From an uncultured Eubacteriales bacterium (GTDB taxonomy: Bacteria; Bacillota; Clostridia; Christensenellales; Aristaeellaceae), in the NCBI GenBank assembly GCA_902764185.1, contig CACWUV010000001.1, positions 12,258-76,257 on the forward strand: a stretch of DNA of 64,000 bases, given 5' to 3'. The notes under the pieces are model-generated. The model was not told the origin of the DNA and did no database searches. It worked only from the letters and a program-made list of their open reading frames with translations. Of this stretch, positions 7,158 to 27,600 are shown in pieces (positions within the stretch are counted from its first letter, which is position 1; the number at the start of each line of letters is the position of its first letter). The translations under genes and the position numbers were made by a program.

Positions 7158-8165
7158 ATGAGCGAAACCGTCCGTAAACCCGTCCTCTATTCCGCGGTGC
7201 AGCCCAGCGGCACCCTGACCATCGGCAATTACATCGGCGCGCTGCGCAATTTCGTCAAGCTGGAAAAGGACTACGACTGCCTGTTCTGCATGGCGGACCT
7301 CCACGCCCTCACCGTGCGCCAGGAGCCCGCGGCCCTGCGCCGCCGCACCGCCGAGCTGGCCGCCCTGTATATCGCCTGCGGCCTGGACCCGGAAAAGAAC
7401 ATCATCTACGCCCAGAGCCACGTGCCCATGCACGCCGAATTGGCCTGGATCCTCAACTGCTTCACCTACATGGGCGAGCTTTCCCGCATGACCCAGTTTA
7501 AGGATAAAAGCGCCAAGCACGCCGACAACATCAACGCGGGCCTGTTCACCTATCCCGTGCTGATGGCGGCGGACATCCTGCTGTACCAGACCGACGTGGT
7601 GCCCGTGGGCGCGGATCAGAAGCAGCACCTGGAAATCTGCCGCGACATCGCCGAGCGCTTTAACTCCGTCTATGGCGACGTGTTCAAGATCCCCGAGCCC
7701 TACATCGCCAAGTCCGCCGCCGCCCGCATCATGGCGCTGAACGACCCCGGCAGCAAGATGAGCAAATCCGGGGAGCCGGACAGCTTTATCAGCATGGCGG
7801 ACACCCCGGACGACGTGCGCCGCAAGCTGCGCCGCGCCGTCACCGACAGCGACGGCGAGATCCGCGTGGACCCGGAAAACAAGCCCGGCGTCACCAACCT
7901 GATCACCATCTGCGCCGCCATGAGCGGCAAAACCGCCGAGGAAGTGTGCGCGGAATTGCAGGGCAAGGGCTACGGCGCCCTCAAGGACGCCACCACCGAG
8001 GCCGTGGTCAGCGTTTTGTCCCCCATCCAGGCGGAGCAAAAGCGCATCCTGGCGGACAAGCAGTATATCAACGACGTGCTCAAGAACGGCTCCGAGCGCG
8101 CCAGCGCCCTGGCCTTCCGGACGCTGCGGAAAGTGTATAAGAAAGTCGGATTATATCAGTTGTGA
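7158..8165 (+). CDS. trpS: Tryptophan--tRNA ligase
   Basis: ATG 7158 behind AAGGAGAG. It has PSGTLTIGNYIGAL (HIGH-type), KMSKS and full-length class-I TrpRS similarity. Confidence 0.93.
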   Translation: MSETVRKPVLYSAVQPSGTLTIGNYIGALRNFVKLEKDYDCLFCMADLHALTVRQEPAALRRRTAELAALYIACGLDPEKNIIYAQSHVPMHAELAWILNCFTYMGELSRMTQFKDKSAKHADNINAGLFTYPVLMAADILLYQTDVVPVGADQKQHLEICRDIAERFNSVYGDVFKIPEPYIAKSAAARIMALNDPGSKMSKSGEPDSFISMADTPDDVRRKLRRAVTDSDGEIRVDPENKPGVTNLITICAAMSGKTAEEVCAELQGKGYGALKDATTEAVVSVLSPIQAEQKRILADKQYINDVLKNGSERASALAFRTLRKVYKKVGLYQL

Positions 8166-8169
8166 TATG

Positions 8170-8269
8170 AGATCCTTCGACTCCGCTGCGCTTCGCTCAG
8201 GATGACAATCGAGAGAGAACACTCCTTCCAATGTCATCCTGAGCGGAACGAAGTGGAGTCGAAGGATCT
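8170..8269. repeat. R1 palindromic (MITE-like) element, short variant, copy 1
   Basis: Arms AGATCCTTCGACTCCGC..GCTCAGGATGACA and TGTCATCCTGAGCGG..GTCGAAGGATCT surround a short loop. The same termini recur at 19617, 30734 and 31953. Confidence 0.85.
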
Positions 8270-8329
8270 ATTGCTTACATTGGCAGAATGATATAGAAAT
8301 ATCAAAGCATACGGAAAGGGAAATACAGT

Positions 8330-9643
8330 ATGAAGAAAAAATGTTTCTGGATTATACTCATTCTGCTATGTATTGGCTGCGCCTGCTCCATGGCGGAAGA
8401 GCAACCGGTAACCTATACCAGCGGAGATTATCAATATATTCTGCTGCCTGATGGCACGGCAGAAATTACAAAATATATTGGAAAAGCAGAAAATCAGGAA
8501 ATTCCGTCAGAACTAGATGGACATACAGTAAGCAGTATCGGAAATCGTGCTTTTGCTGGAAACAATAAAATAGTTAGCATTGATATTCCAAATAGTATAA
8601 TATTTGTTGAAAATAATCCATTTAGTGGTTGTAGTAGCCTTATGTATTTTTCTGTGGCACCGGATCACCCAACTTTAGCAGTTAATGATGGTGTGCTATT
8701 CCAAGAAAAAAAACTCATCTGTTATCCATCCAATAAGAAAGAGAGAGTGTATTCTATTCCTGATGGAACTCAAGAAATTGGTGATTATGCATTTTCTAAC
8801 TGTAAAAATTTGGTAGATGTTACAATCCCAGATAGTATAATACATATTGATAATATCCCTTTTATTTATTGTAACAATCTTTCTGCCATACATGTTTCAC
8901 CTGATCATCCGCTTTTTGCTGATATAAAGGGAGTTTTATTTCAAAAAGATGAAAAAAGGCTGGTTTGCTACCCAGCAAAAAGGAGAGATGAATCCTATTC
9001 TATTCCGAAGGGAATTTTGGAAATAAGCGAATTTGCATTCTGTCATTGCTTTTATCTGACTAATATAACTATTCCAGATAGTGTTGTCAATATACAAAAG
9101 TATGCGTTTTGTAACTGTCCTGTTTTGAGCGAAATTGATATACCAAATAGTGTGGAAACCATTAACGAAGGAACATTCTATGAGTGTTCTAGTTTAACCA
9201 ATGTAAACCTCGGGGATAAAATATCTCGTATTGGGGATTATGCGTTCTACTTCTGCGAAGAATTAAAAAACATTATAATTCCAGATAGTGTCACAGAAAT
9301 TGGTGAGGGTGCTTTTTGCTTTTGCTTTAGTTTGACTAATGTTTTGATGCCAAAAAATTTAAACAGTATTGGTGATTCTGCCTTTTCGTATTGTAATAGA
9401 TTAATAAGTATTATAATTCCGAACAACATTAGCGACATTAATGATACAATCTTTTCTGGTTGTACAAAACTAAGTAACATTATGATTCCGGAAAGTGTAA
9501 TTTCTATTAGTGAAAATGCCTTTGTTGATTGTCCTGTATCTCTAACGCTAATCGTTGAACGAGATAGTTATGCTTTGCAATATTGCAAGCAGAAGGGTAT
9601 CGGTTACAATTACCCGGATGCTTTAGATTGGCTGAACAACTGA
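8330..9643 (+). CDS. BspA-type leucine-rich-repeat surface lipoprotein
   Basis: Signal peptide with lipobox (LLCIGCAC). It is followed by more than 10 repeats of the I.IP.SV..IG..AF..C..L pattern (LRR_5-like). The gene is markedly AT-rich relative to its flanks. Confidence 0.85.
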   Translation: MKKKCFWIILILLCIGCACSMAEEQPVTYTSGDYQYILLPDGTAEITKYIGKAENQEIPSELDGHTVSSIGNRAFAGNNKIVSIDIPNSIIFVENNPFSGCSSLMYFSVAPDHPTLAVNDGVLFQEKKLICYPSNKKERVYSIPDGTQEIGDYAFSNCKNLVDVTIPDSIIHIDNIPFIYCNNLSAIHVSPDHPLFADIKGVLFQKDEKRLVCYPAKRRDESYSIPKGILEISEFAFCHCFYLTNITIPDSVVNIQKYAFCNCPVLSEIDIPNSVETINEGTFYECSSLTNVNLGDKISRIGDYAFYFCEELKNIIIPDSVTEIGEGAFCFCFSLTNVLMPKNLNSIGDSAFSYCNRLISIIIPNNISDINDTIFSGCTKLSNIMIPESVISISENAFVDCPVSLTLIVERDSYALQYCKQKGIGYNYPDALDWLNN

Positions 9644-9675
9644 CAAACCTTCCATTGTGAAAGGAGGTTTTCGCC

Positions 9676-9999
9676 TTGATCATCGTCGCCGTCACCCTCT
9701 TTATCCTGGCCGCGGCCTGCCTGGCCCTGTCTGTCTGCCACTTCCGGCAGCGGGGGTACCTGTTCAACAACGCCTGGATCTACGCCTCCAGCACCGAGCG
9801 GGAGACCATGGACAAGGCTCCCCACTACCGCCAGAGCGCCGTGGTGCTGCTGCTGGTGGCGGCGCTGTTTGCGCTGCTGGGGTTTTCCGTGCTGACGCAG
9901 AAAACCTGGCTGCTGTGGGCGGAAGCCGCGCTGACCGCGGTCAGCCTGATCTATGCCATCGCATCCTCCATCAAAATCGAAAAAAATAAAAGGAGCTGA
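9676..9999 (+). CDS. Small membrane protein (3 predicted TM helices), unknown function
   Basis: TTG 9676 lies 9 nt after AAAGGAGG. The segments are hydrophobic and no family was recognised. Confidence 0.55.
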   Translation: MIIVAVTLFILAAACLALSVCHFRQRGYLFNNAWIYASSTERETMDKAPHYRQSAVVLLLVAALFALLGFSVLTQKTWLLWAEAALTAVSLIYAIASSIKIEKNKRS

Positions 10000-10004
10000 T
10001 CCTT

Positions 10005-14574: not shown

Positions 14575-14605
14575 AGATCCTGCTGGCCTTCGGCCAGCAG
14601 GATCT
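14575..14605 (+). terminator. Hairpin downstream of rdgB (terminator-like, weak U-tract)
   Basis: agatcctgctggcc-ttc-ggccagcaggatct. The stem sequence is nearly the same as the 3894-3929 hairpin. Confidence 0.4.
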
Positions 14606-14689
14606 TATAATAACTAACTTACTATTTTTGTTTATCCAATTCTATGCGTACAGCAGCCGGCTTTCCAGGTCAAGGGGATAAAAATTCAT

Positions 14690-14718
14690 GTGAAAACGTA
14701 TCTGTTATATGCTATAAT
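14690..14718 (+). promoter_or_regulatory. Extended -10 promoter candidate for the multi-SBD ABC operon
   Basis: TGcTATAAT at 14710-14718. The -35 is poor (gtgaaa). Confidence 0.35.
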
Positions 14719-14757
14719 AAATTTGACAATCGCATCGAAAAAAAGGATGGCATTGCT

Positions 14758-17700
14758 ATGAAGAAATTGCTTGTATTGCTGGCGGCGCTGCTGCTGTGCG
14801 TAGGCGGAGCTCACGCCGAGATCACCGCCGCGGCGCAGCTGAACGCTTCGGGCGTCACCGTGGGCGTGGATCAGGGCAGCGCGGCGGAGCTCACCGTGCG
14901 GGAGCTGCTGCCCCATGCCTCCATGGCCTATTTTACCGACAAATTCATGGGCTACACCGCCGTGGCCCAGGGTAAGATCGACGCCTTTGTGTACGACCGC
15001 CGCCAGATGCAGCTGGCCATCGAGGGCGGCCAGGCGGGCGTGCATCTGCTGGACGACACCCTGGGCGACACGGTGAAGGTCGCCGTGGGCCTGTCCCCCG
15101 TATCGAAGATCCCCGACCTGGAAGGCAAGATCAACCAGTTCATCGCGGCTCTGCGGGCGGACGGCACCCTGGACGATATGTACCGCCGCTGGGTGTCGGA
15201 CGGCAACGAAGCCATGCCCAAGATCACCCTGCCCGGCAGCCCCAGCCTGCATCTGACCGTGGGCACCAGCGGCATCGTGCCGCCCTACAGCTATTATCAG
15301 GATGGAAAGCTGAACGGCTACGATATTGAATTGGCCTATCGCTTCGCCGCCTGGCTGGGCGCGGACGTGGAATTCAAGGTGTACGATTACGGCGCCATCA
15401 TCCCCGCCGCCCTGACCGGCGACGTGGACTGCGTGATGGCCAACCTGAACCTGACCCCCGAGCGCCAGGAAGCCATGACCTTCTCGGACATCCTCTATGA
15501 AAGCGAGCTGGGCATCCTGGTGCGGGGGGAGACCGCCGCGGCTGAACCCGCGCCCGCCTGGGCCGCCTACAACGGCAAGCGCCTGGGCGTGCTCACCGGC
15601 CCGCTGATGGAGGACATCGCCCACGCCAACTTTCCCGACAGCGAATACATGCTGTTCAACAGCTATCCCGACTGCATCACCGCGCTGATGTCGGGCCGCA
15701 TCGACGCCTATCTGGGCGACGAGCCCGGCCTCAAATCCGTCCACGCGGAGCAGCCCCGGATCGACTATATCCGCGAGCGGATCACCAACCAGGAATACAG
15801 CTTCGCCTTCCGCAAGAACGACCCGGAAAGCGCCAGGCTGTGCGAAGAACTCAACGCCTTCCTGGCCCAGAGCCACGCGGACGGCACCATGCAGGAGCTG
15901 GATGACATCTGGTTTGGTGTGGATGAAGGCCGCAAGGTGGTGGATATGAGCGGCCTCACCGGTGAAAACGGCACCATCCGCGTGGTCACCACCTCCACGG
16001 ATATGCCCTGGTCCTACATCAAGGACGGCAAAAACGTGGGCTATGACATCGATCTGGTGGTGCGCTTCTGCCGGGCCGCGGGCTATAAGCTGGAGCTGGG
16101 CGACGTGGACTTTGCCGCCCGCATCCCGGCCATCCAGAGCGGCAAATACGATTTTACCACCGACATGAACGTGACGGAGGAGCGCAAGGAGCAGGTGCTC
16201 TTTTCCGATCCCACCAGCACCGGCGGCGTGGTGCTGGCCATCCTGACGGACGGCACCGAGCCGAAGGCCGCCCAGGAAGCGCCCGCCGACCCCCTCAGCC
16301 CCCTGGCCTGGAACGGCAAGCGCATGGGCATCCTGACGGGTACCAGCTTTGAAGCCCCTACGCTGGCGTTCTTTCCCGACAGCGAATACCTGTACTATAA
16401 CAGCTACACCGACGTGACCGCCGCGCTGGCCAACAATAAGATCGACGGCTTCCTGGGCGACGAGCCCGCGCTGCGCATCCTGGCCGGCGAAGTGCCCGAA
16501 GTCACCTATCTGTCCGAAAAACTGGTCAGCGACGAATACGCCTTCGGCTTTGGCAAGAGCGGAGCGCGGGCGGATACCATCCGGGGCCAGTTCAACGAAA
16601 TGCTGGCGGAGATCATGGCCGACGGCACCCTGGACGCCCTGAACGAAAAGTGGTTCGGTGACGATGAAGCCGCCAAGGTGGTGGATCTGAAGAACGGCTT
16701 CTCCGGCGAAAACGGAAAATTGAACGTGGCGACCACCGCCACCGACGTGCCTTTCTCCTATGTGAAGGATAATGAGTATGTCGGCCTGTCCATCGAGCTG
16801 GTGGAGCTGTTCTGCCGCCGCTACGGCTATACGCCGGTCGTCGAGAACGTGGACTTCGCCGCCCGCATTCCCGGCCTGGTCAGCGGCAAATACGACATGT
16901 GCGCCTCCTCCATGGCCATCACCGAGGAGCGCAAGGAAAGCATCAGTTTTTCCGATCCCTTCTATCAGGGCGGCATCGTGCTGGCTGTGCGGAAAGGGGA
17001 CGCGCCCGCTGAGACAGCGGAAAGCGCCGGAGCGTCCCATGGGGAGGCGGCAAGGGCCCTGGCCGCGCTGAACGGCCGGCGCATCGGCGTGCAGACCGGC
17101 ACCAGCTTTGACAAGTCCGTCGCCGCGCTGTTCCCCGACGCGCAGATCGAATATTACAACTCCAAGCCCGACATGATCAACGCGCTGCAAACCCGCAAGA
17201 TCGACGCCTACGCCGTGGACGAGCCCGTGGCCAAGGCCCAGATGCAGCAAAACGACAAGCTGACCTACATCCCCGAATACATGGAGCACTTTGACTTTGC
17301 CTACGTGTTCCCCAAGACCCAGGCGGGCCAGGCGCTGTGCGATCAGTTCAGCGAATACCTGGCGACCATCCGGGCGGACGGCACGCTGGCCGAAATCGAG
17401 GCCAAGTGGTTCAGCGAGGACGAGAGCGTCAAGACCTTGGCGGACTACGCGGCCTTCCCCGCCGTCAACGGCACCCTGAACATGGCCACCGAAGCCATGT
17501 ACGAGCCCTTCAGCTATGTCAAGGGCAATGAAATTGTGGGCTACGACATCGACGTCGCGGTGGGCTTCTGCCAGGCCTATGGCTACGGCCTCAAGATCAC
17601 CGACATGAACTTTGACGCCGTGCTGCCCGCCGTGCAGAGCGGCAAGTGCGACTTTGGCGGCGCGGGCATCACCATCACCGAGGAGCGCAAGGAAAGCGTG

Positions 17701-18519
17701 CTCTTCTCCGCCCCCAACTTCTCCGGCGGCACCGTGATGACGGTGCTGAAGGCCGACGCCCAGCCCGCCGCCCAGACCCCGGCCGCCGCGCCCTCCGGGC
17801 TCAGCGTATTCTGGGAGGATATCCAGGCCAGCTTCAGCAAGACCTTCCTCCGCGAAAACCGCTGGCAATTGTTCCTGGAAGGCGTGGGCAACACCATGCT
17901 GATCACCGTGCTGGCCATCCTGTTTGGCACGGCCCTGGGCTTCCTGGTGTTCATGCTGTGCCGCAACGGCAACCCTGCGGCCAACGGCGTCAGCCGCTTC
18001 AGCATGTGGCTGGTGCAGGGCATGCCCATGGTGGTGCTGCTCATGATCCTCTACTACATCGTCTTTGGCCGTGTGGCCATCAGCGGCATCGCGGTGGCCG
18101 TCATCGGCTTTACCCTGACCTTTGGCTCGGCGGTGTTCGGCATGCTCAAGATGGGCGTGGGCTCCGTGGACAGGGGCCAATACGAGGCTGCTTACGCCCT
18201 GGGCCACAGCAACCGCCACACCTTCTTCCGGATCATTCTGCCCCAGGCCATCCCCCTGGTGCTGCCCGCCTTCCAGGGCGAGATCGTGGGCCTCATCAAA
18301 GCCACGGCCATCGTGGGCTACATCGCCGTGCAGGATCTGACCAAGATGGGCGACATCGTGCGCAGCCGCACCTACGAGGCCTTCTTCCCCCTGATCGCCA
18401 TCACCGTCATCTACTTTATGCTGGAAGGGCTGCTCAGCTTCGCCGTCAGCCGCATCCGCATCGACCCCAAGAAGCGCAAGCGTGAAAATATCCTCAAGGG
18501 GGTGAACCTCCATGATTAA
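14758..18519 (+). CDS. ABC amino-acid importer: signal peptide, four tandem SBP_bac_3-like repeats, then a His/Glu/Gln/Arg-type permease domain
   Basis: ORF 14644..18519, with the start at ATG 14758 (MKKLLVLLAALLLCVGGAHA). There are four repeats of roughly 235 aa (about 14818-15531, 15556-16248, 16300-16998, 17056-17751). Each contains GK(R)(L/I)GV..G...D(A/G)(Y/F).. and ...ADGT...W(F/V), followed by ...PFSY....G.DI.L......G......DF...IP...SGK.D...... The permease domain runs from about 17806 (LFLEGVGNTMLITVLAILFG...). Confidence 0.85.
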   Translation: MKKLLVLLAALLLCVGGAHAEITAAAQLNASGVTVGVDQGSAAELTVRELLPHASMAYFTDKFMGYTAVAQGKIDAFVYDRRQMQLAIEGGQAGVHLLDDTLGDTVKVAVGLSPVSKIPDLEGKINQFIAALRADGTLDDMYRRWVSDGNEAMPKITLPGSPSLHLTVGTSGIVPPYSYYQDGKLNGYDIELAYRFAAWLGADVEFKVYDYGAIIPAALTGDVDCVMANLNLTPERQEAMTFSDILYESELGILVRGETAAAEPAPAWAAYNGKRLGVLTGPLMEDIAHANFPDSEYMLFNSYPDCITALMSGRIDAYLGDEPGLKSVHAEQPRIDYIRERITNQEYSFAFRKNDPESARLCEELNAFLAQSHADGTMQELDDIWFGVDEGRKVVDMSGLTGENGTIRVVTTSTDMPWSYIKDGKNVGYDIDLVVRFCRAAGYKLELGDVDFAARIPAIQSGKYDFTTDMNVTEERKEQVLFSDPTSTGGVVLAILTDGTEPKAAQEAPADPLSPLAWNGKRMGILTGTSFEAPTLAFFPDSEYLYYNSYTDVTAALANNKIDGFLGDEPALRILAGEVPEVTYLSEKLVSDEYAFGFGKSGARADTIRGQFNEMLAEIMADGTLDALNEKWFGDDEAAKVVDLKNGFSGENGKLNVATTATDVPFSYVKDNEYVGLSIELVELFCRRYGYTPVVENVDFAARIPGLVSGKYDMCASSMAITEERKESISFSDPFYQGGIVLAVRKGDAPAETAESAGASHGEAARALAALNGRRIGVQTGTSFDKSVAALFPDAQIEYYNSKPDMINALQTRKIDAYAVDEPVAKAQMQQNDKLTYIPEYMEHFDFAYVFPKTQAGQALCDQFSEYLATIRADGTLAEIEAKWFSEDESVKTLADYAAFPAVNGTLNMATEAMYEPFSYVKGNEIVGYDIDVAVGFCQAYGYGLKITDMNFDAVLPAVQSGKCDFGGAGITITEERKESVLFSAPNFSGGTVMTVLKADAQPAAQTPAAAPSGLSVFWEDIQASFSKTFLRENRWQLFLEGVGNTMLITVLAILFGTALGFLVFMLCRNGNPAANGVSRFSMWLVQGMPMVVLLMILYYIVFGRVAISGIAVAVIGFTLTFGSAVFGMLKMGVGSVDRGQYEAAYALGHSNRHTFFRIILPQAIPLVLPAFQGEIVGLIKATAIVGYIAVQDLTKMGDIVRSRTYEAFFPLIAITVIYFMLEGLLSFAVSRIRIDPKKRKRENILKGVNLHD

Positions 18520-19603
18520 AATCGAGCATCTGAAAAAGGAATATCCCAACGTGACGCCGCTGAAGGACGTGACCGTGGAAATCCACGACGGCGACGTGAT
18601 CAGCGTCATCGGCCCCTCCGGCACGGGCAAGAGCACGCTGCTGCGCTGCATCAACCTGCTGGAAACGCCCACCAGCGGCCATATCTGGATCGACGGCGAC
18701 GAGATCACCGCCCGCAAAGCCAACCTGCAAAAGATCCGCCAGAAAATGGGCATGGTGTTCCAGAGCTTCAACCTTTTCGGCCACCTGACGGTGATCGAAA
18801 ACATCATGCTTTCTCCCATGGATCTCAAAGGCGTCAGCCGCCAGGAGGCCTACGACACCGGCATGAAGCTGCTGCGCACCGTGGGCCTGGCGGAAAAGGC
18901 GCTGAACTACCCGGACGAGCTGTCCGGCGGCCAGAAGCAGCGCATCGCCATCGCCCGCACCCTGGCCATGGACCCGGACATCATCCTGTTTGACGAGCCC
19001 ACCAGCGCCCTGGACCCCACCATGGTGGGCGAGGTGCAGGCCGTCATCCGCGATCTCTCGAAGACCGGCAAAACCCTGATGATCGTCACCCACGAGATGA
19101 GCTTTGCCCGGGCCATCAGCAACCGCGTGTTCTATATGGACGAAGGCGGTATCTATGAGGACGGCACCCCGGAGCAGATCTTTGAGCATCCCCAGCGGGA
19201 AAACACCCGCCGCTTCATCCGCCGCCTCAAGGTGCTGGAGCTGCGCGTCCAGAGCCGGGATTACGACTTCCTGGGCATGGAAAGCGAGATCCAGCAGTAT
19301 TGCATCAAAAACCAGGTGCCGCCCCGCATGGCTCACCGGGCGCAATTGGCCTTTGAGGAGCTGGTGCAGCAGCAGCTGGTGCCCGCCCTGGAAAGCCCCG
19401 ACATCCAGGCCGTGCTGGAATACTCCGAGGCCGAGGAAAGCGCCGCCTTCACCGTGCGCTACGGCGGCAAGCCCTTCGATGTCACCACCCAAGGTGATGA
19501 ACTTTCCCTGGCCGTGCTGCGCGGCAGCGTGACCGACATGGCCTACCAGTGGATGGCGGGCCAGGAGCGCGGCAACCGGCTGACCATGCAGATCAGGGCG
19601 TAA
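18512..19603 (+). CDS. Amino-acid ABC transporter ATP-binding protein with a roughly 115-aa C-terminal extension
   Basis: Walker A GPSGTGKST, LSGGQKQRIAIAR and Walker B ILFDEPTSALD. It overlaps the permease stop by 8 nt. About 115 extra residues follow the usual GlnQ-like end. Confidence 0.9.
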   Translation: MIKIEHLKKEYPNVTPLKDVTVEIHDGDVISVIGPSGTGKSTLLRCINLLETPTSGHIWIDGDEITARKANLQKIRQKMGMVFQSFNLFGHLTVIENIMLSPMDLKGVSRQEAYDTGMKLLRTVGLAEKALNYPDELSGGQKQRIAIARTLAMDPDIILFDEPTSALDPTMVGEVQAVIRDLSKTGKTLMIVTHEMSFARAISNRVFYMDEGGIYEDGTPEQIFEHPQRENTRRFIRRLKVLELRVQSRDYDFLGMESEIQQYCIKNQVPPRMAHRAQLAFEELVQQQLVPALESPDIQAVLEYSEAEESAAFTVRYGGKPFDVTTQGDELSLAVLRGSVTDMAYQWMAGQERGNRLTMQIRA

Positions 19604-27401: not shown

Positions 27402-27600
27402 CAAAAAAATTCCGCGCATTCCCAAAAGAAAGCGCGGAAAATAAGCATGCCAAACAAGCCTTTTCTCAGCGTCTCCTTTTCAAATGCGGAAGGTGCAGCC
27501 GTTTCCCGCCGCGCCCAGGCTCCCGCGCCATAACAATCGTCCCAGGCGGAGGAGCTCGAAGACACTGTTATTATGCCATAGAATATCGATTGCCGTCAAC
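27402..27600 (-). promoter_or_regulatory. Leader RNA with intrinsic terminator; candidate Moco riboswitch
   Basis: On the minus strand: ...CGAGCUCCUCCGCCUGGGAC...GGGAAACGGCUGCACCUUCCGCAUUUGAAAAGGAGAC.... This is followed by the hairpin UUCCGCGC-14nt-GCGCGGAA and U7 (rc of 27402-27439), 12 nt before the moeA ATG. The Moco assignment rests on recalled motif pieces (CGAGC, GCCUGGG, AAAGGAG), not on a covariance-model run. Confidence 0.5.

Follow-up and report, generated by a model that had tools for sequence, protein, structure and literature searches.

A GlnP-type amino-acid permease with four tandem, probably circularly permuted substrate-binding domains

The window analysed here, a stretch of 64,000 nucleotides from an uncultured Eubacteriales bacterium, encodes an ABC permease whose amino-acid-binding segments stand in a shifted register. 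A canonical polar-amino-acid binding protein can be divided into an N-terminal part of ~100 aa, here called B, and a C-terminal part of ~120 aa, here called A; the question raised by the locus is which A packs with which B. A reading of the sequence alone had offered either four circularly permuted domains or three canonical domains (B1A2, B2A3, B3A4) with two orphan halves. Our evidence favours the former, with one covalent hinge crossover in each domain, over the latter; what decides between them are single-unit relatives, the modularity of A-B units, the co-divergence of A1 and B1, and AlphaFold2 (AF2) models. We put at about 0.8 the probability that the protein is a GlnPQ-type importer subunit made of four circularly permuted SBP_bac_3 domains, A(i)B(i), and a GlnP-type membrane domain (TMD).

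Segment order and transporter context

The reading frame spans 14644..18519 on the forward strand, and its credible start is the ATG at 14758, which gives a protein of 1253 aa. This ATG opens a typical signal peptide (MKKLLVLLAALLLCVGGAHA, followed by E), has an AGGA 10 nt upstream and is equivalent to the Met at which homologues begin. Together with the inverted repeat after the Ham1 stop codon (14547), the signal peptide and the AGGA leave no space for an upstream "B0" segment, and none is present between that stop and the ATG; the first A thus has no B before it, as the sequence-only reading had held. Profile and PDB searches and an HMM scan also confirmed the segment map that it had proposed, which runs from the signal peptide (SP) as SP-A1-B1-A2-B2-A3-B3-A4-B4-TMD (Table 1).

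Against canonical binding proteins, A1 (aa 25–146) aligns with nothing but their C-terminal half (AncQR 116–232) and B4 (aa 903–999) with nothing but their N-terminal half (AncQR 8–105), and a 17-aa Ala/Pro-rich spacer joins B4 to the BPD_transp_1 membrane domain (aa ~1015–1253). Within unit 1, phmmer against the PDB aligned aa 31–147 with AncQR 116–232 and aa 166–256 with AncQR 12–103 (residues 11–127 and 146–236 of the unit), a swapped order relative to AncQR. The interior of the permease is colinear with canonical proteins as B1A2 (166–389), B2A3 (406–640) and B3A4 (652–886); residues 27–246 of the GlnH model, a full-length canonical model, align with aa 166–389 at a good score. Because the interior of a tandem array always aligns colinearly as B(i)A(i+1), hmmscan, which had been put forward as a test of permutation, is insufficient alone, and only the array ends, single-unit relatives and module-level evolution are informative. 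The A-first, B-last order itself is real, neither chance nor an assembly artefact: all full-length relatives examined share it.

Table 1. Features of the permease locus in window coordinates; units are labelled as putative permuted domains.
Feature	Position	Strand	Basis or remarks
Inverted repeat, 13-bp stem, terminator-like	14576..14604	+	Read directly from the sequence; between Ham1/ITPase gene and permease gene
Start codon and Sec-type signal peptide, aa 1–20, MKKLLVLLAALLLCVGGAHA	14758..14817	+	AGGA at 14744–14747
Putative permuted unit 1: A1 aa ~25–146, junction 147–162, B1 163–256	14818..15525	+	phmmer, HMM scan, AF2 (pLDDT 86–97); A1 = lobe 2 + C-terminal helices of lobe 1, B1 = main part of lobe 1; most divergent unit, A1 and B1 both outliers
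Spacer 1, B1→A2, GETAAAEPA region	15526..15549	+	Ala-rich variable class; AF2 pLDDT <50 at aa 259–264
Putative permuted unit 2: A2 aa 265–387, junction 388–404, B2 405–496	15550..16245	+	HMM scan, orthology
Spacer 2, B2→A3, TDGTEPKAAQEAPADP	16246..16293	+	AF2 pLDDT <50 at aa 499–510
Putative permuted unit 3: A3 aa 513–633, junction 634–653, B3 654–745	16294..16992	+	HMM scan, orthology
Spacer 3, B3→A4, KGDAPAETAESAGASHGEAA	16993..17049	+	AF2 pLDDT <50 at aa 753–762
Putative permuted unit 4, membrane-proximal: A4 aa 765–887, junction 888–904, B4 905–997	17050..17748	+	HMM scan, AF2
B4→TMD spacer, KADAQPAAQTPAAAPSG	17749..17799	+	Composition like inter-unit spacers; AF2 pLDDT <50 at aa 1001–1010
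GlnP-type ABC permease membrane domain, aa 1015–1253, and stop	17800..18519	+	Pfam, NCBIfam, PDB 4yms
GlnQ/TcyN-like ABC ATPase, 363 aa	18512..19603	+	NCBIfam GlnQ, Pfam ABC_tran

The binding units belong to SBP_bac_3: PF00497 matches in four stretches (2.6e-122), TIGR01096 (6.5e-127) and the GlnH model (1.3e-94) match as well, and so do many binding proteins in the PDB; the Pfam Lig_chan-Glu_bd match falls on B3. Their order is an A-then-B module, not the canonical one (lobe-1 N-terminal segment, lobe 2, lobe-1 C-terminal helices, with two hinge crossovers). By alignment to AncQR, all four window units hold both the ligand-contacting Arg and the Asp. Across 468 units, 94–98% retain the Arg that corresponds to GlnBP R75 and 84–87% the Asp that corresponds to D157, as assigned by the AncQR alignment and GlnBP numbering. 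The Arg, in lobe 1, holds the alpha-carboxylate of the bound amino acid and the Asp, in lobe 2, its alpha-ammonium group.

These binding domains lie on the same polypeptide as the permease, behind the signal peptide and N-terminal to the TMD, which matches BPD_transp_1 (PF00528, 1.3e-18), TIGR01726 and the NCBIfam cystine, ectoine and GlnP permease models; the permease of PDB 4yms matches aa 1037–1226. The next gene, which overlaps the permease stop by 8 nt, encodes a GlnQ-like ATPase (NCBIfam GlnQ, 7.9e-84 over aa 1–238; Pfam ABC_tran) with a C-terminal extension of ~120 aa. An ATPase gene directly follows the permease in 64 of 82 related loci, and 62 of those 64 keep the extension. The flanks are unrelated (Ham1 upstream; a metallo-beta-lactamase-fold gene downstream, on the opposite strand), and there is no second permease gene among the flanking genes. 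On this evidence the protein is likely the membrane subunit of an amino-acid ABC importer of the GlnPQ type, and its homology and operon content suggest ATP-driven amino-acid uptake with P2Q2 stoichiometry. By analogy, the importer is likely homodimeric with eight tethered binding domains; of the six to eight sites per homodimer estimated earlier, eight would hold for permuted domains in an assumed homodimer.

Pairing of the A and B halves

A search for homologues with the same A-first order found them in number: all 117 full-length close homologues are (AB)n-TMD proteins with n = 2–7 in the HMM scan. The best 150 representatives of an exhaustive HMMER search comprised 46 A-B-TMD, 48 (AB)2-TMD and 30 (AB)3-TMD proteins; none was a plain canonical (BA)n-TMD protein, and departures from the pattern were limited to a few fragments and a single odd protein with the order B-A-A-B-TMD. 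Family members in species-representative genomes carry between one and eight units (n = 1–8), and hundreds of species retain an A at the start and a B at the end of the array, also in single-unit proteins. Since the SP-A-B-TMD relatives have one A and one B, their domain must be permuted. This large family from the gut and rumen, whose members have one to eight permuted domains, is apparently new to the literature: no description of such a permuted permease family was found in the literature that could be searched.

The junctions point the same way. In the 117 homologues the A→B junction measures 17–19 aa (sd 1.2, n = 482), close to the conserved 20 aa or so read from the window alone, whereas the B→A spacer varies from 2 to 39 aa (sd 4.6, 24% Ala, n = 364). 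The B→TMD spacer (5–36 aa, 28% Ala, n = 119) shares one Ala-rich composition with the B→A spacers, and the variable, Ala-rich character ascribed to both classes is thus borne out.

In confident mappings between homologues, the A(i)-B(i) adjacency was broken in 0 of 15,321 and the B(i)-A(i+1) adjacency in 2,873 of 6,859, counts that refer to pairs of proteins and not to independent evolutionary events. Only 2–7 of 218–409 A types have more than one B type after them, but 40–47 have more than one B type, or the signal peptide, before them. The two-unit relative P0112 corresponds to window units 1 and 2, its last B being 92% identical to B2 and 53% to B4, and the three-unit relative P0052 begins with an orthologue of A2. 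Window unit 2 as a whole has its orthologues in unit 2 of P0112, P0044 and P0002 and in unit 1 of P0052. In these comparisons, units are gained, lost and shuffled as A-B modules only. The most divergent A is A1, and the most divergent B is B1, in 93 of 116 proteins each, and the last B takes that place in only 9 of 116; A1 co-diverges with B1, not with B4.

Structure prediction, which had been proposed as a check, agrees for the unit modelled alone: A4B4 (aa 763–1000) folds as a single domain (pLDDT 96.4, pTM 0.91). Its full-length Foldseek matches are other bilobed PBP-II proteins (TM 0.45–0.55), with OpuAC (2b4l) and LysR-type effector domains among the best. In the AF2 model of the whole ectodomain (pLDDT 88.9), confidence drops below 50 only at the three inter-unit spacers and at the one leading from B4 into the TMD; the A→B junctions score 86–96. 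Canonical binding proteins compared colinearly with this model gave 24–31% identity, rmsd 16–20 Å and TM 0.36–0.38, so B(i)+A(i+1) is not superposable on solved binding proteins in it. On the basis of AF2 confidence values and Foldseek scores, A(i) is predicted to pack on B(i) into one bilobed domain; because co-evolution in a repeat protein cannot tell which copies pair, the AF2 choice is driven by chain geometry.

Could the interior nonetheless hold three canonical domains (B1A2, B2A3, B3A4), with A1 folding onto B4 of the same chain so that a split fourth domain closes a ring? We consider this very unlikely, although the interior stretches are colinear with full-length canonical models and A1 and B4 jointly supply every segment of one domain. 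In addition, the spacer between B1 and A2 does not exceed the matching loop of E. coli GlnBP in length, so canonical pairing is sterically possible there. However, two-unit relatives end in an orthologue of B2 and three-unit relatives begin with one of A2, and the partners in a ring would vary from protein to protein. The adjacency never broken is A→B, while B→A often is; the outlier B is B1 and not the last B; the length-invariant A→B junctions are predicted to be ordered and the variable B→A spacers disordered; and AF2 does not assemble B(i)+A(i+1) colinearly. During secretion, A1 would presumably also have to stay unpaired, with B1 next to it, until 750 to >1700 further residues had followed.

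It is equally improbable that the A-B order is real but the halves pair across the homodimer by 3D domain swapping, at least in the membrane-proximal unit or in single-unit relatives. A homodimer is indeed expected from an operon of one permease gene and one ATPase gene, and the PDB search matched 4prs, the related T. maritima ArgBP, which forms a helix-swapped dimer. Yet the A→B connector keeps its length of 17–19 aa and is modelled at pLDDT 86–98, A4B4 reaches its pTM of 0.91 as a monomer, and nothing would bring the distal units, on their long flexible spacers, to one particular partner in the second chain. Less probable still is that A1 and B4 are decaying remnants of recombination in a canonical tandem, leaving only three interior domains functional. 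In its favour, A1 is the most divergent A of the window protein (21–24% identity to its siblings), but the conserved ends of multi-unit and single-unit proteins alike speak against this, as do the ligand-contacting Asp (84%) and Arg (94%) kept in the A and B of first units, the AF2 confidence of A1 and B4 (pLDDT ~90–97), and the finding that B4 is the whole permease protein's best match to solved binding proteins in the PDB search.

A model for the permuted array and its origin

In the model of four permuted domains, the mature extracellular part would be a string of substrate-binding domains, each of which begins with lobe 2 and has a single crossing, at the second hinge strand of the canonical fold, to the C-terminal lobe-1 helices. 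The 17–19-aa connector would then link the canonical C-terminus to the canonical N-terminus, and the main body of lobe 1 would come last. The cut point would be the canonical first hinge crossover, from which a flexible Ala-rich spacer would lead to the next unit or to the TMD. Judging from GlnPQ biochemistry, a permease homodimer with two ATPase subunits would present eight tethered domains, each taking an amino acid, closing and docking on the membrane domains, with import driven by ATP hydrolysis; divergent units may differ in specificity or affinity.

The family likely arose through permutation by duplication: a canonical tandem of the L. lactis GlnP type (B-A-B-A-TMD) would have shed the B at its start and the final A, and the resulting A-B module would have been amplified to one to eight copies in different lineages. 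In support of such an origin, one unit aligns colinearly with residues 110–326 of 6h30, the SBD1-SBD2 tandem of GlnP, a stretch that begins with the C-terminal half of SBD1, continues through the linker and ends with the N-terminal half of SBD2. Whether all this amounts to a widespread new class of ABC importer, derived from tandem GlnP by a permutation that rewired the receptor and by amplification of the A-B cassette, is a tentative proposal that we think somewhat doubtful. If true, the cut would lie exactly at the first hinge strand, and each domain would hang from its hinge rather than from lobe 1, by a single covalent hinge; its opening and closing dynamics and its docking would change, in a way that recalls how S1 joins M1 in glutamate receptors. 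With as many as eight distinct receptors on each chain, or sixteen per transporter, rumen and gut anaerobes would have a multi-specific amino-acid "fishing line", and the family would be a clean natural case of permutation by duplication from tandem GlnP.

Comparison with known systems

GlnPQ of Lactococcus lactis and its homologues (6h30, 4kqp, 4la9) share with the window system the SBP_bac_3 domains, the permease family, the GlnQ-like ATPase, tandem binding domains N-terminal to the TMD on flexible linkers, and a two-gene operon, which implies a homodimer. In L. lactis, SBD1-SBD2 are fused N-terminally to the permease GlnP, with tandem linkers of 14–25 aa (PMC8025302). Whereas the one or two domains of GlnP follow the canonical order and are tethered by the C-terminal helix of lobe 1, the window permease has four (one to eight in the family), probably permuted and tethered from the cut first hinge strand, with one predicted covalent inter-lobe crossover per domain; its ATPase has an extra C-terminal region of ~120 aa relative to GlnQ. 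That the protein is unlike the described one- or two-domain GlnPQ fusions, as first claimed from the sequence, agrees with the literature searched.

Natural circular permutants are known among PBP type II proteins, namely the glycine-betaine binding proteins B. subtilis OpuAC versus ProX, molybdate-binding proteins and CysB (Lo and Lyu 2008, PMC2395249). Permutants of the OpuAC/ProX type are likewise homologues of bilobed binding proteins with N- and C-terminal segments interchanged, and the window units have both interchanged segments and joined canonical termini, as judged from phmmer, the junctions, AF2 and single-unit relatives. However, those permutants are single soluble or lipoprotein domains of other subfamilies, recognised by structure comparison, whereas the window family belongs to the polar-amino-acid subfamily, is visible at the sequence level (24–31% identity to canonical relatives), and is permease-fused and tandem-amplified.

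The ligand-binding domains of ionotropic glutamate receptors and of bacterial GluR0 (S1-channel-S2) have an SBP_bac_3-like fold interrupted at the same place, and their B-like S1 runs directly into transmembrane helices, as B4 does in the window permease. In the receptors, however, the A-like S2 follows the membrane helices of an ion channel, whereas here A precedes B in an ABC permease, and we regard the two as analogous in connectivity alone. Circular permutants of amino-acid binding proteins engineered for biosensors (for example, of the glutamate-binding protein) show that this fold can accept new termini and the joining of its original N- and C-termini; these are artificial single domains without a transport role.

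Segment order and start site of the permease

The binding segments of the permease run A-first and B-last, A being the C-terminal and B the N-terminal part of a canonical SBP_bac_3 binding domain. With two small purpose-built HMMs, one for the C-terminal ~120 aa (A) and one for the N-terminal ~93 aa (B) of the canonical domain, the protein reads A-B-A-B-A-B-A-B-T, where T is the membrane domain. In PDB searches, the mature protein opens with a segment (aa 31-147) whose match is confined to residues 116-232 of AncQR, an ancestral binding protein (4zv1), and the next segment (aa 166-256) matches AncQR residues 12-103. The best PDB match of the whole protein aligns aa 903-999 with AncQR residues 8-105; after aa 999 there is no lobe-2 sequence, and a 17-aa Ala/Pro-rich spacer leads into a single BPD_transp_1 permease domain (aa 1057-1230; Pfam). 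The sequence-only reading, which had described this succession of segments, was thus right in all particulars by Pfam, PDB and the A/B HMMs. Its proposed check of profile-HMM coordinates did return SBP_bac_3 in four stretches (2.6e-122), but Pfam and NCBIfam coordinates alone leave the permutation hidden, since alignments inside a tandem array are colinear: the best stretch of the current PF00497 model (132 positions), 655-886, looks canonical, and full-length NCBIfam binding-protein models align colinearly to aa 166-389 and 652-886.

The start of the protein is well defined. Translation from ATG 14758 gives a product of 1253 aa with a classical signal peptide (MKKLLVLLAALLLCVGGAHA, followed by EIT...), an AGGA lies 10 nt upstream, the codon sits in an AT-rich stretch downstream of an inverted repeat, and the equivalent Met is the first residue in close homologues. 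No extra N-terminal segment of the mature protein is therefore coded upstream; on this evidence we rejected an upstream-encoded B0 segment, which the sequence-only reading had likewise failed to see between the upstream gene and the start, and, given the signal peptide, AGGA and homologue starts, a start at ATG 14644. An identical protein in public gene calls (P0003, P0267; 1291 aa) does begin at ATG 14644, which adds 38 residues (14644-14757) before the signal peptide; other members of its cluster have 1253 aa, and the upstream start is probably mis-called. The flanking genes are unrelated (Ham1 upstream; downstream, in opposite orientation, a gene for a metallo-beta-lactamase-fold protein). 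Elsewhere in the window, GC is 0.42 in the stretch 8001-10000 around a BspA-type ORF, compared with ~0.62 in the remainder; this ORF lies in a compositionally distinct island and may be of horizontal origin.

Features of the permease locus and other window features (window positions)
Feature	Position	Strand	Remarks
BspA-type ORF, 437 aa	8330-9643	+	leucine-rich repeats, PF13306, 9.1e-69
Inverted repeat, 13-bp stem	14576-14604		downstream of the Ham1-family gene stop codon (14547)
ORF containing the permease	14644-18519	+	
Credible permease start codon	ATG 14758	+	classical signal peptide, AGGA, homologue starts
GlnQ/TcyN-like ABC ATPase	18512-19603	+	next gene, 8-nt overlap with permease
ATPase C-terminal extension, ~120 aa	19232-19600	+	beyond ABC domain; GlnQ model ends at aa 238
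Moco (molybdenum/tungsten cofactor) riboswitch	27457-27573	-	Rfam RF01055, 66.9 bits (gathering score 36)

Pairing of the half-domains

The sequence-only reading offered two interpretations of this order: four permuted domains, each formed by an A with the B directly behind it (A_iB_i), or three canonical domains (B_iA_i+1) flanked by two orphan halves. The colinear alignment of binding-protein models over the interior speaks for the canonical pairing. Six independent lines favour A_iB_i instead, and our results support a model in which the protein consists of four circularly permuted domains, with their packing drawn from structure prediction and evolutionary comparison. Single-unit relatives (signal peptide-A-B-T, 505-545 aa) contain one A and one B, A first, and therefore the permuted arrangement exists on its own. 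Across 117 proteins, 468 of 482 A-to-B connectors are 17-19 aa long (sd 1.2), whereas the B-to-A spacer varies between 2 and 39 aa (sd 4.6; 24% Ala) and the B-to-T spacer between 5 and 36 aa (sd 5.9; 28% Ala), much as expected from the earlier description of a conserved A-B junction of ~20 aa and variable Ala/Pro-rich linkers elsewhere. The two kinds of spacer share their Ala-rich composition; the variable, low-complexity kind of segment is also the one in front of the membrane domain, as would be expected of a tether between domains, and the fixed A-to-B connector behaves like an intradomain connection.

Arrays of different length point the same way. The two-unit homologue P0112 corresponds by orthology to window units 1 and 2, with a final B that is 92% identical to B2 and 53% to B4, and the three-unit homologue P0052 lacks unit 1 and begins with an orthologue of A2 (86%). 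We compared all ordered protein pairs, taking orthology as confident at an identity of at least 0.6 and a margin of at least 0.15. Although these adjacency counts, like the type counts that follow, are not independent events, the asymmetry is complete: an A and its following B mapped to the same unit in 15,321 of 15,321 confident cases, whereas for a B and the A after it the mapping fell on neighbouring units in only 3,986 of 6,859, with similar results under other thresholds. Among 256 proteins (766 units), more than one following B type was found for 2-7 of 218-409 A types and more than one preceding B type or signal peptide for 40-47, a clustering in which only the symmetric comparison (same A types, following versus preceding B) is meaningful, because A diverges faster than B. 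By these sequence comparisons, the A-B cassette is the sole module of gain, loss and shuffling, and the breakpoints fall in the B-to-A spacer.

The first unit is an outlier in both of its halves. In the window protein, A1 shares 21-24% identity with the remaining A copies (38-42% among themselves), and B1 shares 27-35% with the remaining B copies (47-54% among themselves). This co-divergence recurs in the family, where A1 and B1 each diverge most among the copies of their kind in 93 of 116 proteins, whereas the last B is the outlier in only 9. Missing binding residues in A1 or B4 would have pointed to orphan remnants; a check of both segments revealed no such loss.

Structure prediction agrees with the A_iB_i pairing. 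An AlphaFold2 model of aa 21-1010, built with 43 four-unit homologues, has a mean pLDDT of 88.9 and falls below 50 only at the three B-to-A spacers (aa 259-264, 499-510 and 753-762) and the B4-to-T spacer (1001-1010), whereas the A-to-B connectors are predicted to be ordered (86-96); A1 and B4 score about 90-97. Modelled alone on an alignment with 40 relatives of the single-unit type, unit 4 (aa 763-1000) gives one compact predicted domain (pLDDT 96.4, pTM 0.91). Foldseek aligns canonical amino-acid binding proteins colinearly with the ectodomain model over 165-205 columns (24-31% identity), at an rmsd of 16-20 A and a TM-score of 0.36-0.38; the B_i and A_i+1 halves are therefore not one assembled domain in the model. 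Full-length Foldseek matches of unit 4 are LysR effector domains, OpuAC, HisG, PstS and MetQ at TM 0.45-0.55. Foldseek depends on sequence order and does not superpose a permutant on its closest relatives, so that such matches to other bilobed type II folds would be expected of a permutant; we use the method here as negative evidence on the colinear halves and as an indication of a bilobed fold.

Distribution of the family and its ATPase

The protein belongs to a large uncharacterised family, which goes under a generic public name ("transporter substrate-binding domain-containing protein"). The sequence-only reading had proposed a search for homologues with the A-first order; among the 120 best homologues from a collection of 5.8 billion proteins, all 117 full-length members are (AB)n-T with n = 2 to 7 and carry A directly behind the signal peptide, the departures being two N-terminally truncated fragments and one partial protein without a membrane domain. 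Lengths rise in steps of ~250 aa (767, ~1010, ~1250, ~1500, ~1770, ~2010). An exhaustive HMMER search of 1.84 billion representatives, queried with the membrane domain plus the spacer and the final 33 aa of B4 ahead of it, returned 982 below 1e-30; the best 150 of these include 46 A-B-T, 48 (AB)2T, 30 (AB)3T and 11 (AB)4T proteins, two with five units and two with six. P0204 (748 aa, JGI metagenome) reads signal peptide-B-A(partial, lobe 2 only)-A-B-T; it resembles a canonical-order half-unit ahead of a permuted one and could be an intermediate or a secondary fusion. Many relatives (P0074-P0076, P0081, P0088, P0089, P0097, P0106, P0117, P0120) have a lipobox-like signal peptide (for example, LLAGCG or LLLGCA), in which case a lipid at the N-terminus and the membrane domain at the C-terminus would anchor the two ends of the array; in the window protein the cleavage site, between AHA and E, is an ordinary one.

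Relatives are encoded in at least 480 species (one genome per species). The best 80 loci, with n = 1 to 8, come mostly from rumen and gut MAGs of Clostridia (Oscillospiraceae, Ruminococcaceae, Lachnospiraceae, Christensenellales) and in part from Anaerolineae, Coriobacteriia and Erysipelotrichaceae; the largest array, of eight A-B units, occurs in one of these genomes (L001-L080). Close relatives with 63-69% membrane-domain identity are also encoded in MAGs of Chloroflexi/Anaerolineae and Coriobacteriia (L023, L033, L042, L044, L055, L061, L067, L070, L071, L073, L077, L080) that derive from the rumen and gut samples which yielded the Clostridia; this suggests horizontal transfer within the habitat or mis-binning. 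Given this distribution, the family may be relevant to amino-acid scavenging in the rumen and gut. An ATPase gene lies directly downstream in 64 of 82 related loci. Its C-terminal extension had no Pfam or PDB sequence match; conserved in 62 of these 64 ATPases, it may be a family-specific regulatory domain.

Putative function and relation to known systems

The Arg of T-x-E-R (lobe 1), which in canonical binding proteins contacts the carboxylate of the amino acid, and the Asp after K-I-D-A-x-x-x (lobe 2), which contacts its ammonium group, are present in all four window units and kept in 94-98% and 84-87%, respectively, of 468 units, first units included. By this conservation, all units look like working amino-acid receptors. 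The low identity from unit to unit (21-54%) suggests different ligands or affinities, although the sequence does not allow a confident reading of the specificities. Both the membrane domain and the ATPase belong to the polar-amino-acid uptake type (Pfam, NCBIfam). As the locus has one permease and one ATPase gene, we infer, by analogy with GlnPQ (PMC8025302), a P2Q2 complex that would display eight tethered receptors. Once closed on its amino acid, a receptor would dock to the membrane domains and set off import powered by ATP.

Tethered binding domains determine the selectivity and rate of ABC importers, for which two-domain GlnPQ is the model system. A natural family with 1-8 domains per chain is test material for how many receptors one translocator can serve, how tether position affects docking and whether Venus-flytrap motion needs a second hinge strand, and it is a transparent case of evolution by duplication, truncation and module amplification. 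Automated annotation ("substrate-binding domain-containing protein") splits these proteins into canonical domains plus fragments, so that boundaries taken from it for expression constructs, specificity prediction or biosensor design would be half a domain off. Our literature search turned up no description of SBP_bac_3 domains that are permuted, of such domains joined to a permease, or of arrays with three or more; subscription journals were poorly covered, and a prior mention is possible. An OpuA paper (PMC2861598) makes no mention of permutation.

A unit is colinear with residues 110-326 of 6h30, the GlnP tandem of L. lactis; this stretch runs from the C-terminal half of SBD1 across the linker through the N-terminal half of SBD2. 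Linkers in tandems of GlnP homologues are 14-25 aa long (PMC8025302), near the 17-19-aa connector, which fits an origin of the permutation by duplication and then truncation of a natural tandem. Among proteins of the type II binding fold, natural circular permutants have been reported, by structure comparison, for glycine-betaine, molybdate and CysB proteins (PMC2395249). The connection from B to the membrane domain resembles the S1-to-M1 link of glutamate receptors, and the Pfam Lig_chan-Glu_bd model matches B3. GlnPQ, in contrast, tethers two tandem domains in canonical order, whereas the window protein carries four permuted units.
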